Shown here one piece after another: positions 48,687-56,920 of a stretch of DNA of 64,000 nucleotides. The stretch comes from an uncultured Candidatus Saccharibacteria bacterium (GTDB lineage: Bacteria; Patescibacteriota; Minisyncoccia; Phycocordibacterales; CAYSCM01). The notes under the pieces were generated by a model. That model saw only the letters and a program-made list of their open reading frames with translations. It was not told the DNA's origin and ran no database searches. Position 1 is the first letter of the stretch; each line of letters begins with the position of its first letter. The position numbers were made by a program, and so were the translations under genes. Where the stretch lies: NCBI GenBank assembly GCA_964429815.1, contig CAYSCM010000001.1, positions 224,001 to 288,000 of the forward strand. The letters run 5' to 3'.

Positions 48687-48697
48687 AACTGATGAAA

Positions 48698-48723
48698 AAC
48701 GCCGCGACTTCCGTCGCGGCGTT
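48698..48723. terminator. bidirectional terminator hairpin AACGCCGCGACTTCCGTCGCGGCGTT between rplB and a convergent minus-strand gene
   Basis: 10-bp GC stem. Confidence 0.55.
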
Positions 48724-48728
48724 CGTGT

Positions 48729-49391
48729 TCACCAGTACGCAAAGGGATCGCGCCAGTCTGGGTAGTTATCATGGAGCCATCGGTATATTGGAGGATGCAG
48801 TTGCGGAAGTCTAGCTGCACGGCGTTTACTGTCTCTCGCCGCGTCTTCCTCAAGAAGGCGTGTATCTTCATCGGTTATTCCGTCGAACTTTCTTTCCTTC
48901 CGTTTTTCGACGTGCACAATGCCAATAAACTCGGCTGGTTTCTCTGGCTCAACAAAGGTACGGTCGATTACCACGTCGATGATATAGCCTCTTGGCCGTT
49001 CGATGGGAGCGGTGTGAATGTTGGGCGGATTCAAAGCGTAGCGACAATAGACTTGAGCGCTCTCTAAACCAAGTCGATCGTCGCTGAATTCCCGGTGTAT
49101 ATGTACCCGGAGATTCCCTTTCCTATCGAGAACATGAAGAATTCCAGAATCAGGCCTTCCGTAGGCATCGTATCCTTCGACCGCTCTCCAACCGGATGGG
49201 AGCACTACATCGAATCTCACATAATTTGGTGGCGGATTAGCCAACTCGTTAAAGAGTTGTCCATTGAGATCAAATGCTCTCAGCACCTGGAAACCTCCTC
49301 GTTGGAGCGTTTCGCGCATTCCCTTCAGTCCCTGCCAAGGGAATTCTGCATTTTCAAGAGTAAACCAGGGGAGTACTACGGTACCAGACAT
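48729..49391 (-). CDS. hypothetical protein (220 aa) inserted between rplB and rpsS
   Basis: Minus-strand AAGGAG RBS; no recognisable family. Confidence 0.5.
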   Translation of the reverse strand: MSGTVVLPWFTLENAEFPWQGLKGMRETLQRGGFQVLRAFDLNGQLFNELANPPPNYVRFDVVLPSGWRAVEGYDAYGRPDSGILHVLDRKGNLRVHIHREFSDDRLGLESAQVYCRYALNPPNIHTAPIERPRGYIIDVVIDRTFVEPEKPAEFIGIVHVEKRKERKFDGITDEDTRLLEEDAARDSKRRAARLPQLHPPIYRWLHDNYPDWRDPFAYW

Positions 49392-49467
49392 GTAATCTCC
49401 TTTTGTTTGTGGATCAGTCCTGAGGTGACATTAAATTTAAACAGCGCTTTTTGCAATAAAAGAAATT

Positions 49468-49493
49468 CACCCCGCACTTCTTTGTGCGGGGTG
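49468..49493 (-). terminator. minus-strand terminator hairpin CACCCCGCACTTCTTTGTGCGGGGTG
   Basis: 10-bp stem; T-rich on minus strand. Confidence 0.55.
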
Positions 49494-49499
49494 AGTTCG

Positions 49500-49913
49500 T
49501 CATCCGGTCTCGGACGGCACGCTGTTTTCGAGCTGTGAGCCGACCAGAACGAACGAATTAACGAAGATGATGAGAATACCCGCGAGAATGCTAAGAAACC
49601 ACAGCGGGCTCGAGAGGAGTATAATGAAGAGCGTGTAGAGTAGGGTCGCCGTGACGGAAAGCGATGAAAGCCAGGCACTTTCCTCGTCCCAATCCCACTC
49701 CCACTTCACGAAGCTTTCAGCGACCAGATACAGGACGAGGGCCGGCCCGCCAAAGAAAAAGAGGAAAAATCTCGCCCCATCGATCGCCTGAGTCATCATG
49801 GCGTCGAGGGTCATCAGCACGTGCGCCATCGTCCACGGTTTCGTCATAGGTTCTCCCTTCACGGTCTCTTGCGGAACTGTAGATCTTCTTGGGATTTTTG
49901 CAAGAATTTGCAA
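49500..49913 (-). CDS. hypothetical membrane protein (about 3 TM; possible start at 49847)
   Basis: Hydrophobic segments FFLFFFGGPALVLYLV, LLYTLFIILLSSPLWFLSILAGILIIFV. Confidence 0.45.
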   Translation of the reverse strand: MQILAKIPRRSTVPQETVKGEPMTKPWTMAHVLMTLDAMMTQAIDGARFFLFFFGGPALVLYLVAESFVKWEWDWDEESAWLSSLSVTATLLYTLFIILLSSPLWFLSILAGILIIFVNSFVLVGSQLENSVPSETG

Positions 49914-49975
49914 GAATATGAGGGATCCGAAAGAAAAACGCCGCGATCTGATGCATCGCGGCGGGGACCAAAAAT

Positions 49976-50226
49976 TCAGGCAGCGTCCTTTTCGCCGGGG
50001 AATAGAGGGTCGCTAAGCCTGTACTTAGTGATTCCGTCGCGGCGGTAGAGCGTGCCGGGTGCGTAGCCATGGCCTCGCTTCAGGCAGTAGGCCGCGACGT
50101 AGGCCCTCGCTTCCCCTTCGCTCTCGGCCGAAAAGTACTCGAGTTTTTTCTCTGCACTTCGAGCTCCCGAGACGGGATTTCGGAAAAATTTTACGTAGTT
50201 GAACTCGAACTCCTGTCGGGGCATGG
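49976..50226 (-). CDS. hypothetical small protein (83 aa from MPRQEFEF)
   Basis: AAGGAG RBS 6 nt before ATG 50226; the longer ORF-track version is Arg/Gly-rich upstream. Confidence 0.4.
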
Positions 50227-50289
50227 AAGGCTCCTTCAGTTGCGCTCCGGCCACTCTAGACCCGTTCTGTCTCCCTCGCAAGCCTCCGT

Positions 50290-50318
50290 TTGACAGTGCG
50301 GGCTCGCGCGAGTAGTAT
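50290..50318 (+). promoter_or_regulatory. promoter TTGACA-17-TAGTAT restarting transcription at rpsS
   Basis: Hexamer match 40 nt upstream of the rpsS ATG. Confidence 0.5.
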
Positions 50319-50358
50319 GTTGCCACAAGCTCTTCAGCGAGCTTTTTTGATTGAAATT

Positions 50359-53356: not shown

Positions 53357-53878
53357 ATGCTCGAACTCATCAAAAAACAAAACGATGCGCACAAGGCGCT
53401 CTCCTACAAAAACGTAATGCAGACACCAAAGATCGAGAAGGTCATCGTCTCGATCGGCGTTGGCTCTGTGAAGGACAAGAAAAAATTTGACGTCATAACA
53501 GACCGCCTCGCGAAGATCACGGGCCAAAAGGCCGCTCCGCGCGCCGCCAAGAAATCGATTGCAACCTTTAAGCTGCGCCAGGGGGACGTCGTCGGGTTCC
53601 AAATCACGCTCCGAGGCTCGCGCATGAAGAATTTTCTCGAACGCCTTCTCGCGGTGGCGCTTCCACGTACCCGCGACTTCCGTGGGCTTGATCCTAAGGC
53701 TATCGACGAGATGGGTAACCTCACCATCGGCATTAAGGAGCACACTATTTTCCCTGAAACCTCTGACGAGGATCTCAAGGACGTCTTTGGATTTGCCGTG
53801 ACGGTGGTTACTACCGCCAAAAGTCGCGACGAGGCACTGAAGTATCTCACCTACCTCGGATTTCCTTTCAAGAAATAA
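53357..53878 (+). CDS. rplE: 50S ribosomal protein L5
   Basis: 173 aa from MLELIKKQNDAH; FDGRGNLTIGIKE-like L5 core. Confidence 0.9.
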   Translation: MLELIKKQNDAHKALSYKNVMQTPKIEKVIVSIGVGSVKDKKKFDVITDRLAKITGQKAAPRAAKKSIATFKLRQGDVVGFQITLRGSRMKNFLERLLAVALPRTRDFRGLDPKAIDEMGNLTIGIKEHTIFPETSDEDLKDVFGFAVTVVTTAKSRDEALKYLTYLGFPFKK

Positions 53879-53949
53879 AAAGCCCTAGCTTTCAGAGCAA
53901 TTTGTATTTTTTGGGCTTCAGCTTAGGTCGAGCTTTCGGACCGGAGCAG

Positions 53950-53979
53950 TTGACAATCTCCACTATTATATAGTATAAT
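53950..53979 (+). promoter_or_regulatory. promoter TTGACA-18-TATAAT driving the DGR target gene
   Basis: Exact hexamers; followed by RBS AAGGAGG 6 nt before ATG 54118. Confidence 0.6.
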
Positions 53980-54117
53980 TCTTTCCATAACACTAGTTCC
54001 TTGATTTGGTTTTGCCCTGGCAGGAAGAGCTTTCGTTGAGAGAATTTCCTGCTGTGGCAAAGCCCGTTCGGGCCGAGTCTGAACAGCACTGTAAAAACGC
54101 TCAAAGGAGGTAATCTC

Positions 54118-54759
54118 ATGAGCGAACAACAGATCGCCAAGCTCGCCGGCGCATTGGTGGAGCACCAACGGCATTTCGGTGCCATGCCAACCGAGGATCG
54201 CCAGTGGGCGATCCAGAATACTGAAGCGGCCATCGGTCTATTCGCCGTTGCAGTGAAGAACCGCGACAACGGCCAGACACAGAAACCAAGGACGCTCTTG
54301 AAGTTCGTGGCGAGCGTAAGCATCGCCGCGATCGAAGGCTTCAAAGTCTCCGAGAACTTCGAGGAGGGGAAGTTGGGCCCGGTCAGAATCTATTGGCTCG
54401 GCGACGACTTCAAGAAGCACTTCGGCCGCAAGACCGAGAGCGCTTTGGAAGCAGTCGAGCTGAAGGTTCACACTCTGACCAAGGCTTCGCTCGATGCCCC
54501 GATCATCGCGGAACTCGCGGGCAATGCGGAGATCACGATGGGCCAGTTCTTCGCTCTGCTATCGAAGCAGGGCAAGGGCGAGAGCGGGCCGCTCCTTACG
54601 AACGGCTACGCCAACATCGCCTACATCCGCGACGACGAGGGCGTCCTATGGGCGGTGGACGCCCACTGGCACGCCGGCCGCGGGGGCTGGGACGTCTACG
54701 CCGACTCAGTCGCCTACCCGGGCGAGTGGGACCGGGGTCGCCAGGTTCTTTCCCGCTGA
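54118..54759 (+). CDS. DGR target (variable) protein, 213 aa, C-terminal variable region; no signal peptide detected
   Basis: The last ~33 codons (VR 54658-54756) are the adenine-mutagenised copy of TR; TR N codons (AAC) correspond to D/H/H/G/R/D/Y/D/A/Y/G/D/R in VR. Confidence 0.8.
   Translation: MSEQQIAKLAGALVEHQRHFGAMPTEDRQWAIQNTEAAIGLFAVAVKNRDNGQTQKPRTLLKFVASVSIAAIEGFKVSENFEEGKLGPVRIYWLGDDFKKHFGRKTESALEAVELKVHTLTKASLDAPIIAELAGNAEITMGQFFALLSKQGKGESGPLLTNGYANIAYIRDDEGVLWAVDAHWHAGRGGWDVYADSVAYPGEWDRGRQVLSR
54658..54756 (+). repeat. DGR variable region (VR)
   Basis: ~100-bp alignment to TR with 16 mismatches, every one an A in TR (A->G/C/T in VR), and no non-A differences; homology ends just after the stop codon. 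Confidence 0.85.
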
Positions 54760-55096
54760 TTCTCGAACCCTTAAGCCCTCGGCCTGAGATCCTTTGACCC
54801 TCTGAAACTTTGCGAAGCAATTTGCGAAGGAGTAGGAGGGTCTTCTATTTTTTATTTTGATATAGTAAGACGTGAGGAGTGCTACTGATGCGGCGGCTAC
54901 GGCTTCCGCACAGCGCCTCGAGTATCTGTATCGCCAGAATCACGTCGGCTAAGGCTTGCGCGAGAGCGCGTGCAGGTACTCTTAAAAAAGATAAAGAATC
55001 GGTGCCTCATGCTGGCGGACTTCAAGGTCCCACATACGATACAGCTCGGAGAGTATTCGATGGGTGGTGTTATTGATGGCTTAAGGCACACAACGG

Positions 55097-55206
55097 ATGG
55101 GCGGTGAACGCCAACTGGAACGCCGACAACGGGGGCTGGAACGTCAACGCCAACTCAGTCGACAACCCGAACGAGTGGAACCGGGGTAACCAGGTTCTTT
55201 CCCGCT
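55097..55206 (+). repeat. DGR template repeat (TR); AAC-rich (11 AAC codons in VR frame); followed by hairpin CCCCGCCCTTCGGCGGGG + TTTT
   Basis: See VR; ORF-track entry 55104-55391 is the TR read in the VR frame, not a gene. Confidence 0.85.
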
Positions 55207-55570
55207 ATTCTTTTCTTCCCCCGCCCTTCGGCGGGGTTTTGCTTTCGAGGCCCCTCTTCCATCCCCCAACCATCCGACCCAGTTCGTGCACTTTTTCCGA
55301 GAGAGCAGCATACCTCTTTGTGTCAAGCGCGCGCAGCTCCCATGCGACTCGTAAAAGGAATTTCGCGGTGTCTATTTTTTTGAGTGTGTGAAAAAGTGTC
55401 GGCACTTTTTCACCCGAGCCCTGATAACTTGCGGTGAAGAGAAGTTCCAGCGTGTCTATGAGCGAAAAGTCGATGCGCTCACCGAGTGTATACCGGGCGT
55501 TTTTTGGAAAGTTGTTCCTGCACTCATGCCAGATTTTATATACTGCAACAGCATGTTCAATAACCGGCAA
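55205..55570 (-). CDS. avd: Avd-like accessory protein (four-helix-bundle / 23S rRNA-IVS protein family)
   Basis: 121 aa; HAVAVYKIWHECRNNFPKNARYTLGERIDFSLIDTLELLFTASY resembles IVS/Avd four-helix-bundle proteins; on the strand opposite TR and RT; stop codon abuts the TR 3' end. Confidence 0.65.
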   Translation of the reverse strand: MPVIEHAVAVYKIWHECRNNFPKNARYTLGERIDFSLIDTLELLFTASYQGSGEKVPTLFHTLKKIDTAKFLLRVAWELRALDTKRYAALSEKVHELGRMVGGWKRGLESKTPPKGGGRKE

Positions 55571-55590
55571 AAGTCGTTGGGGGGGTCGCT

Positions 55591-56592
55591 TTGAGGTCGC
55601 AACTCGCTCATACGTATGACGATATCATCTCGCTAGAAAATCTCCTTGCCGCATGGCAGGAATTCGTGCGCGGGAAGCGCAAAAAATGCGACGTGCAAGA
55701 GTTTCAGTTTCGGCTCGTGGACAATATTCTTGAGCTCTACCGTGACTTGAAAGAGAAAACATACACGCATGGGCCGTACCACCCTTTTAAAATAAGCGAC
55801 CCTAAACCCCGCGACATCCACAAGGCGAGCGTACGCGACCGGCTCCTCCACCACGCAATATATCGGAAACTCTATCCATTCTTCGACAAAATTTTCATTG
55901 CCGATTCGTACTCATGCAGGAAAGGCAAAGGAACACACAAGGCGATGAACCGTTTTCGTTCCTTTGCATACAAGGCGAGCTTAAATCACACAAAAACGCT
56001 TTGGGTGCTCAAGTGCGACATCAAAAAGTTCTTTGCATCAGTCGATCAGCATGTTCTCCTGGAGATTATTAGGCGCTGCATTTCTGACACCGACATCCTC
56101 TGGCTCATCGAGCGAGTCGTGCAGAGTTTCAATCCCAGCAGGGAGGGCACGGGTCTCCCGCTCGGCAATCTCACCTCGCAGCTTTTAGTGAATGTGTATA
56201 TGAACGAGTTTGACCAGTTTGTGAAGCGCACCCTCAAAGCGAAATACTACATCCGTTACGCCGATGATTTTGTGATTTTCTCGCAAGATGCGAAATGGCT
56301 CCAACAAATATGCAAATATATCAGCATATTCTTACGTGAACGGCTGAAACTCGAATTGCACCCTAATAAAGTATCGATCACAACGCTCGCATCCGGTATC
56401 GATTTTCTCGGCTGGGTGAATTTTCCTGATCATCGCGTGCTACGCACCTCGACAAAGCGGCGGATGTTGAAGCGAATGACTGGTGAGCAATCTAAAGAGA
56501 TCATCAAACCGTATTTAGGGCTTCTTCAACATGGGAACAGCAAAAAGCTGCAATTGAAAATCTTGTTTGACACAGCAGAGGCAATCAAGTAA
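55591..56592 (+). CDS. DGR-type reverse transcriptase (TTG start)
   Basis: 333 aa; motifs [45 protein letters not shown] (SQ in place of group-II QG), RYADDFVIF; no maturase/X domain; G-rich RBS. Confidence 0.85.
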
Positions 56593-56734
56593 GCTCATCC
56601 CACAAAGCCGAGTAGGGCTTTTCTTTTGGCAAGTGCTAAACCGTCTACGCGGTCGCATACTCCCAGAAGAAAGGGAAGAATACTTCTCTTTTTTCACTCC
56701 ACACGTGGGGGATTGCCAGAAGTTCGTATACCAC

Positions 56735-56920
56735 ATGGCAAAAACCTCAGTCATCGTTCGAAGCAAACGAAAGCCCAAGTTTAAGTCTCGGGTTGTTCGT
56801 CGCTGTTTCAAGTGCGGACGCAAGCGCAGCTACATGCGCGACTTTGACCTGTGCCGCATCTGCTTCCGCGAACTCGCGAACGAAGGCATGATCCCGGGCA
56901 TTAAGAAAAGCTCCTGGTAA
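56735..56920 (+). CDS. rpsN: 30S ribosomal protein S14, zinc-binding type Z
   Basis: 61 aa; [25 protein letters not shown] (C4 zinc ribbon). Confidence 0.85.

Follow-up and report, generated by a model that had tools for sequence, protein, structure and literature searches.

The 64,000-nucleotide stretch of contig CAYSCM010000001.1 analyzed here (the window) contains an S10-spc ribosomal protein cluster with the gene order L2...S19-L22-S3-L16-L29-S17-L14-L24-L5-(cassette)-S14-S8-L6-L18-S5-L15-SecY-Adk-Map. The cassette lies between rplE, encoding L5, and rpsN, encoding S14. It consists of a target gene ending in a variable region (VR), a template repeat (TR), the accessory gene avd and a reverse transcriptase (RT) gene, that is, the parts of a diversity-generating retroelement (DGR).

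An earlier note on this DNA had described a complete DGR at exactly this place, and both of its junctions with the ribosomal genes were reproduced in two independent assemblies. A contig from sequencing run SRR12313482, which was compared over 8.6 kb and reaches from S19 across the cassette as far as S5, showed 0 mismatches, while two contigs from SRR12313479, spanning L24-L5-target and avd-RT-S14-S8, covered both junctions, again with 0 mismatches. Contigs of metagenome-assembled genomes can be chimeric at repeats, and TR and VR form a repeat. Furthermore, the GC content of the RT and avd region (44 to 50%) is below that of the flanking genes (54 to 61%), the target gene being host-like (55 to 64%). 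A cassette of another genome joined into the ribosomal cluster by misassembly or misbinning would fit these features; however, independent contigs without a single mismatch over both junctions exclude a chimera, and we consider such an artefact very improbable.

The cassette is a complete DGR

TR and VR were aligned without gaps at an offset of 449 bp, giving 94 matches and 16 mismatches over 110 bp. The earlier note had claimed that all differences fall on adenines of the TR, and tabulation by TR base bore this out: the 16 mismatches affect 16 of the 28 adenines of the TR, and none of the 82 non-adenine positions is changed (hypergeometric P = 4.4e-12 for all 16 mismatches on A). In the VR, the TR adenines are replaced by G nine times, by C five times and by T twice. 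The coordinates of the note also stand, except that the start of the VR, in open reading frame (ORF) 54118-54759, had to be moved to 54648, since 54658 is the first mismatch and not the start of the homology, which ends at 54757.

In the frame of this ORF, all 16 VR changes are at codon position 1 or 2 of AAC/GAC codons. The VR comprises the final 36 codons and the first base of the stop codon (54757), and the TR read in the VR frame contains 11 AAC, 2 GAC, 1 GAG and 1 CAG codon. Over their last 17 nt (CCAGGTTCTTTCCCGCT), TR and VR are identical. Neither a second VR nor a remote target was found on either strand of the 64-kb window.

The protein targeted by this pair has a helical N-terminal region and a compact C-terminal alpha/beta domain. 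Its 213 residues include neither a signal peptide nor a hydrophobic segment, no sequence match was obtained in Pfam, NCBIfam or PDB, and a Foldseek search against PDB returned nothing usable. About 100 homologues were recovered, and the named ones all belong to Patescibacteria (Kaiserbacteria, Adlerbacteria, "Patescibacteria group"). Across this family, VR entropy is 2.80 bits at the 15 A-templated positions, defined as codons with an A at position 1 or 2, compared to 1.18 bits at the other 18 (P = 3e-6), indicating that the target family as a whole diversifies at its A-templated sites.

The best PDB match of the RT is the RT of the DGR of Bordetella phage BPP-1 (bRT, 8ub7; E = 3.6e-45, residues 8 to 296 aligned), the next one reaching 7.7e-21. 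The DGR-specific motifs quoted in the earlier note were located in ORF 55591-56592: LGNLTSQ aligns with IGSLTSQ of bRT and YADD with YMDD, and the (I/L)GxxxSQ motif is thus present. We also considered that the RT might derive from a group II intron or a retron and that the repeat is a coincidence. The NCBIfam group II RT/maturase model TIGR04416 does score 153 bits on this RT, and the group II and retron RTs in PDB match it at about 1e-20. NCBIfam has no DGR RT model, however, and 153 bits is far under the TIGR04416 cutoff of 300, while the retron RT models, whose cutoff is 235, give no more than 66 bits. The 333-residue RT has no maturase or endonuclease region, and the Rfam search of the locus yielded neither a group II nor a retron RNA. 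Moreover, the bRT match is better by about 25 orders of magnitude, avd is adjacent, and the adenine-only pattern (P = 4e-12) would have to be accidental, which makes the probability of such an origin practically negligible. The RT is therefore closer to DGR RTs, as the note had supposed.

The avd product, in addition to its Pfam match (Table 1), scored just under the cutoff of 80 with the NCBIfam model DivGenRetAVD (1.5e-20, 73.4 bits). The avd and RT genes are oriented divergently, the stop codon of avd lies immediately next to the TR, and the same layout, with avd on the minus and the RT on the plus strand, was seen in every metagenome locus (see below) with sequence upstream of the RT. The start codons of avd and the RT gene are only 20 bp apart (55570-55591); hence, either the promoter of each gene is located within the coding region of the other, or DGR RNA read-through serves as the mRNA of the RT. 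A DGR RNA reading through to the RT would be antisense to avd.

Taken together, the adenine-only TR/VR pair, the bRT-like RT, Avd and the location of the VR in the final codons of the target gene fully support the identification of the element as a complete DGR.

Table 1. Features of the cassette and its flanking genes (positions in the window)
Feature	Position	Strand	Evidence or remarks
rplE (L5), left flank	53357-53878	+	Pfam Ribosomal_L5, 1e-18; L5_C, 2e-28
Target-gene promoter	53950-53979	+	TTGACA, 18-nt spacer, TATAAT; 12/12 consensus match
Structured 5' untranslated region of target gene, about 135 nt	53986-54117	+	Alignments A5, A6
Target (variable) protein gene, 213 aa	54118-54759	+	VR at 3' end
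VR	54648-54757	+	A-only differences from TR; family entropy concentrated at A-templated positions
Terminator-like hairpin and T run, end of target gene	54796-54856	+	DNA fold -10 kcal/mol, z = -3.3; kept in relatives (A3)
Extended -10 box TGaTATAGT, presumed DGR RNA promoter	54858-54866	+	TGnTAnAnT at leader 5' edge
Structured non-coding leader of DGR RNA, ~225 nt	54873-55096	+	Conserved, covarying
Leader helices	54892-54908; 54940-54963; 55002-55013 with 55078-55089; 55017-55030; 55044-55065	+	RNAalifold
TR	55097-55206	+	Downstream non-coding copy, pairs with VR
Post-TR linker, GC hairpin (55219-55236, CUUC loop), U run	55207-55245	+	Terminator-like, z = -2.2
avd, 121 aa	55205-55570	-	Pfam PF22296 bAvd, 6.2e-14, 52.8 bits (cutoff 40)
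DGR RT, 333 aa, TTG start	55591-56592	+	Pfam RVT_1, 4e-26
Weak terminator-like hairpin after RT gene	56604-56629	+	6 pairs, 3 GC, then TCTTTTGG
rpsN (short-form S14, 61 aa), right flank	56735-56920	+	Pfam Ribosomal_S14, 3e-21

Interrupted junctions in related genomes

The earlier note had taken the rplE-rpsN junction to be normally uninterrupted and had regarded the presence of a DGR in the ribosomal operon as unusual. The first premise holds for bacteria in general. To see how the cluster is arranged in relatives of the window, we used its L5 to fetch 80 Paceibacteria loci (L014-L093) with 58 to 72% identity from species-representative genomes, assigned to Kaiserbacteria, Zambryskibacteria, Paceibacterota and others. 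Every gene-to-gene gap was measured, and a gap of at least 500 bp was counted as an interruption.

Two junctions stood out. The L2/S19 junction is interrupted in 28 of 48 loci, by up to 2,959 bp, and the L5/S14 junction in 24 of 62, by up to 4,678 bp. Of the other 14 junctions, L16/L29 reaches the threshold in 2 of 58 loci and the remaining 13 do so in none. The cargo found at L5/S14 is unrelated between loci and may lie on either strand; it includes a DKNYY protein, a PKD/Ig surface protein, DUF475/TerC, a PaaX-like regulator, methyltransferases, an MGS/AICARFT fragment and hypothetical proteins. In this clade, the junction is thus frequently interrupted, and the placement of the DGR is not exceptional but one instance of a recurrent hotspot with unrelated cargo.

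The same two junctions carry promoter-like sites in the relatives. A sigma-70-like site (TTGAC[A/T], 16- to 17-nt spacer, TAnTAT) lies about 60 to 80 nt ahead of rpsS in 58 of 63 relatives, and one is found upstream of rpsN in 15 of the 30 relatives with room for it, compared to 4 to 5% in coding-sequence controls. Two interrupted junctions, both with promoters in the relatives, indicate that the cluster is divided into units whose boundaries collect accessory genes. The position of the cassette between rplE and rpsN is therefore explained by a clade-specific insertion hotspot at a transcription-unit boundary and not by a one-off event. Overall, with a probability of roughly 0.88, we read the element as a chromosomal DGR of Patescibacteria (candidate phyla radiation, CPR), located in the rplE-rpsN gap of a Paceibacteria-type genome near Kaiserbacteria, at a boundary that takes up cargo throughout the clade.

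The L2/S19 junction of the window itself holds a 1.67-kb insert (48687-50358) with a GC content of 47 to 53%, compared to about 56 to 63% in its flanks. Its ORFs, one of 220 residues on the minus strand (48729-49391) and shorter ones, have no Pfam or NCBIfam match. The rpsS promoter of the window (TTGACA, 17-nt spacer, TAGTAT) lies 69 nt upstream of the rpsS start. Four loci, mostly labelled Zambryskibacteria (L022, 1-3460; L018; L020; L024), have in common an L2/S19 insert of about 2.9 kb together with a tight L5/S14 junction of 24 to 26 nt, which suggests that this insert is conserved cargo specific to that lineage.

No target-site duplication was found around the cassette. A 15-nt imperfect inverted repeat (53873-53887/56613-56627), examined as a sign of a mobile element, overlaps terminator-like sequence and probably arose by chance. 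A scan of genome contigs with L5 gave no match above 72% identity, and no empty insertion site was recovered from it.

The same DGR lineage at other sites

Elsewhere, we found cassettes that share the target family and the opposite-strand avd and have a homologous TR and an RT of 61 to 68% identity. In an Adlerbacteria genome (L004), such a cassette has a sigma-factor gene on one side and recA on the other, one adjoins a cupin gene (L013), one directly follows secY in a Zambryskibacteria genome (L022), and one is on a short contig (L094). In all four, the TR/VR differences are confined to adenines. A scan of JGI metagenomes with the RT alignment yielded more than 515 RT relatives of roughly 60 to 70% identity, and 80 of these loci (L097-L176) were kept. 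In one of them rpsS starts 86 bp after the RT (L153), and in another the cassette follows secY-adk-map (L099); the other 78 have no ribosomal protein neighbours in the available flanks.

Genes of the target family also occur on their own. They were found between HIT and recJ in two loci (L002, 6001-6627; L011, 5265-5906) and near a ribonucleotide reductase gene in a third (L008, 6001-6600), and no RT, Avd or TR was detected within 6 kb of any of them. Their C-terminal regions still vary at A-templated positions. They may once have been targets, or a DGR located elsewhere in the genome may diversify them in trans. Cassettes at varied sites and target genes without a DGR together indicate that the cassette moves or is reshuffled between sites.

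Could the DGR owe its place to function, either through coupling to the expression of translation genes or because the region offers it strong expression and a low risk of deletion? DGRs of the lineage do occupy four positions within or at the edge of ribosomal protein clusters, namely in the window, upstream of rpsS (L153), after secY (L022) and after map (L099). Most members with enough flanking sequence lie elsewhere, however, including those next to recA or cupin genes, and only 2 of the 80 metagenome loci have ribosomal protein neighbours. In addition, the same junctions carry unrelated cargo on either strand, and the cassette has its own predicted promoters and terminators. About 3 of 84 loci fall in the cluster, which makes up an estimated 2% of the genome (cluster of about 15 kb, genome of 0.6 to 1 Mb), and there is no clear enrichment. 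We thus find a functional reason for the placement quite improbable. As far as the numbers show, DGRs have used the ribosomal protein junctions more than once but not preferentially.

Structured RNA around the TR

About 240 nt between the terminator of the target gene and the TR are conserved in sequence (alignment A3), with indels that are not multiples of three. A small ORF within this region (54879-55076) was considered as a coding sequence and rejected; we treat it as non-coding because it has no Pfam match and because of the non-triplet indels in the relatives. An nhmmer profile of this leader gave 68 matches in loci of the RT lineage, all but one on the strand of the RT, and these matches were found even at loci whose TR and target differ.

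RNAalifold, applied to 27 distinct leader copies (alignment A4), predicted six helices with 40 pairs in total, and compensatory double changes occur in 31 of these pairs. Within this alignment 93.7% of the cells are paired, compared to 36 to 53% when the partners are slid by 1 to 3 columns, and the covariation score is 0.66, compared to 0.09 to 0.18 in the slid controls. None of 500 shuffles reached the observed values. The longest helix, of 12 bp (55002-55013 with 55078-55089), closes 8 nt before the TR, and at the 5' edge of the leader a TGnTAnAnT box is present in most of the 27 aligned sequences. No Rfam 15 family was matched in the window between 53880 and 56740, either at gathering thresholds or at E values up to 5, and accordingly none of the RT-associated RNA motifs of Weinberg et al. 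(2017) in Rfam matches the leader.

On the other side of the TR, most members of the lineage share a pyrimidine-rich AACTCTYTTCATTTCTC linker, a GC hairpin of variable sequence, and GAGTTTT. The end of avd, which is encoded on the opposite strand, overlaps this hairpin region. By analogy with the stem-loop in the BPP-1 spacer (bioRxiv 10.1101/2023.10.23.563531), the hairpin is a candidate Avd-binding stem-loop. If so, the lineage would keep the post-TR stem-loop but have the bulk of its structured RNA 5' of the TR. Together, these observations suggest that the leader is a candidate new RNA family and that the architecture of this DGR RNA differs from that of BPP-1.

A broader proposal can be made, namely that (a) the Patescibacteria DGR lineage uses a rearranged DGR RNA belonging to an undescribed family, with only a terminator-like hairpin 3' of the TR, and (b) in Paceibacteria the S10-spc cluster has exactly two sites for accessory genes, L2/S19 and L5/S14, which coincide with internal promoters and capture DGRs repeatedly. 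We put forward the two parts jointly as a tentative proposal, a shade below even odds. If the first part is true, the elements for RT binding and for stopping or priming cDNA synthesis are arranged differently from the BPP-1 model.

Expression of the target gene

The earlier note had credited the cassette with a consensus promoter of its own, and this was found intact upstream of the target gene (Table 1). The TTGACA...TAtAAT box is kept upstream of target-family genes at other loci, whether a DGR is attached or not (alignment A5). The transcript leader that follows would form a long hairpin (~54014-54059) and a small one (~54062-54073). Its fold, derived from only 7 sequences, has 33 predicted pairs, 10 of them with compensatory changes, which amounts to weak covariation. 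The 5' CUUUG of this region is predicted to be able to pair with the AAAGGAGG ribosome-binding site. Both the sequence and the hairpins are common to target-family genes with and without an adjacent DGR. On this thin evidence, the region may be a translational control element.

Proposed mechanism and activity

The features described above can be assembled into a model. An RNA of about 370 nt would be transcribed from the extended -10 promoter and would comprise the leader, the TR, and the hairpin with its U run; these parts and their conservation are observed, whereas the transcript ends are predicted. The RT and Avd would bind this RNA, copy the TR into cDNA and misincorporate nucleotides opposite adenines, as expected from their homology to bRT-Avd of BPP-1. 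Again in analogy to BPP-1, cDNA synthesis could come to a stop at the 12-bp helix upstream of the TR, and Avd could bind the stem-loop formed by the post-TR hairpin. The cDNA would then replace the VR, and an outcome of this kind is seen in the 16 adenine-only differences and the absence of any other. The 11 AAC, 2 GAC, 1 GAG and 1 CAG codons could vary without creating a stop codon, allowing an estimated 2e15 protein variants (15^11 x 4^4) on a small C-terminal domain of the 213-residue protein. As to its location, the S10-spc cluster would be divided at L2/S19 and L5/S14, where the relatives have promoters, and the DGR would be one captured cargo among others.

Several observations weigh against this picture. 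The consensus VR is identical in every assembly that carries the target protein, from the two sequencing runs to the NCBI genome. The sequence just 3' of the VR is kept in the relatives (alignment A3), but a hairpin immediately 3' of the VR, which in BPP-1 takes part in target recognition, is not significant in the window (z = 0.42). No sigma-70 promoter for rpsN is recognizable in 56593-56734 (best 7/12), and so the genes from S14 to SecY must be supplied either by read-through from the RT gene or by a non-canonical promoter. The 80 survey loci come from related species, and some of their interrupted junctions may be inherited rather than independent. Finally, the transcript ends and the roles proposed for the RNA helices are putative and were assigned by analogy alone.

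The first of these observations bears on whether the DGR still works. A decayed or domesticated DGR, which once diversified the target but no longer homes and has left the VR as a fixed allele, would account for the invariant VR, and the target-family genes without an adjacent DGR would be in line with it. On the other hand, every component is intact, from the RT, Avd and TR to the leader RNA and the promoters. In an inactivated DGR, drift would be expected to change all four bases, whereas none of the 82 non-adenine positions differs between TR and VR, which argues for recent homing. Moreover, the assemblies probably represent one population, and a consensus hides minor variants; an identical consensus VR across samples therefore carries little information on activity. 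We regard decay as unlikely, although it has more in its favor than the other alternatives considered here, and judging from the sequence, the DGR is probably active.

The DGR itself adds one well-resolved example to a known CPR clade and, as such, matters little. Most of the remaining interest lies in the 5' leader RNA and in the hotspot. BPP-1 has so far been the only structural model, with its functional RNA 3' of the TR, and the leader provides a concrete, testable candidate for the organization of the template RNA in a lineage with an opposite-strand avd. The interruption of two junctions bears on the assumptions about marker-gene synteny that are made in CPR phylogenomics and binning, and it reveals where very small genomes can retain accessory genes.

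Comparison with known systems

In the searchable literature, we found no mention of a DGR location in a ribosomal protein cluster, of an insertion hotspot, or of a 5' leader RNA. The first survey of CPR/Patescibacteria DGRs is said to be that of Paul et al. in 2017. A cell-encoded DGR clade restricted to CPR, with targets that lack recognizable domains, has been described as clade 2 by Roux et al. in 2021 (PMC8144416). Like the members of this clade, the DGRs studied here are cell encoded and restricted to Patescibacteria, come from groundwater, sediment and other aquatic metagenomes, and have targets without a transmembrane segment or a recognizable domain. The DGR of the window is thus a new member of a known Patescibacteria clade, the assignment to clade 2 being made by taxonomy and target properties, without a phylogeny.

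Compared to the variable proteins with a C-type lectin fold (Mtd, Treponema TvpA [2y3c] and Thermus TaqVP), the target protein is similar in that it has a compact alpha/beta domain with the VR at its C-terminal end, and in that conserved W/G scaffold residues alternate with variable positions. Unlike in these proteins, the domain is much smaller (about 150 residues), and it has no sequence match to Pfam FGE-sulfatase or DUF1566.

A second group of relevant systems is the RNA motifs RT-1 to RT-19 (Weinberg et al. 2017, PMC5737381), of which RT-10 lies between TR and brt in BPP-1. The leader resembles them as a structured RNA beside a bacterial RT gene that is probably part of a DGR, but the Rfam 15 search of 53880-56740, at E values up to 5, linked it to none of them.

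The closest comparison is with the BPP-1 DGR (mtd-VR, avd, TR, spacer [Sp], brt). There, cDNA synthesis requires 20 nt upstream of the TR, the TR itself, and a structured spacer of 140 nt downstream; this spacer contains a stem-loop after the TR that binds Avd, the priming adenosine, elements that bind the RT, and a segment that forms a "stop" duplex with a segment upstream of the TR (bioRxiv 10.1101/2023.10.23.563531). For other DGRs, the same preprint looked no further than 40 nt upstream of the TR (bioRxiv 10.1101/2023.10.23.563531).

The window differs from this model in several respects. Its gene order is target-TR-avd (reverse)-RT instead of mtd-avd-TR-brt, and its lineage has a large structured RNA 5' of the TR, whereas the Sp of BPP-1 is 3' of it. 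The DGR RNA of the window looks like a separate unit with its own predicted promoter and terminator, and there is no significant hairpin beside the VR. Furthermore, BPP-1 is a phage, while the element described here is chromosomal, and its target is small, has no signal peptide and is not a tail-fibre protein. The two systems share RT homology over the full length, with the IGxxxSQ and YxDD motifs, and both have Avd. In both, the TR measures about 110 to 134 nt, the differences are specific to adenines, and the target gene carries its VR at the 3' end. The use of AAC codons, and hence the absence of stop codons, is common to them as well, as is a stem-loop just downstream of the TR.

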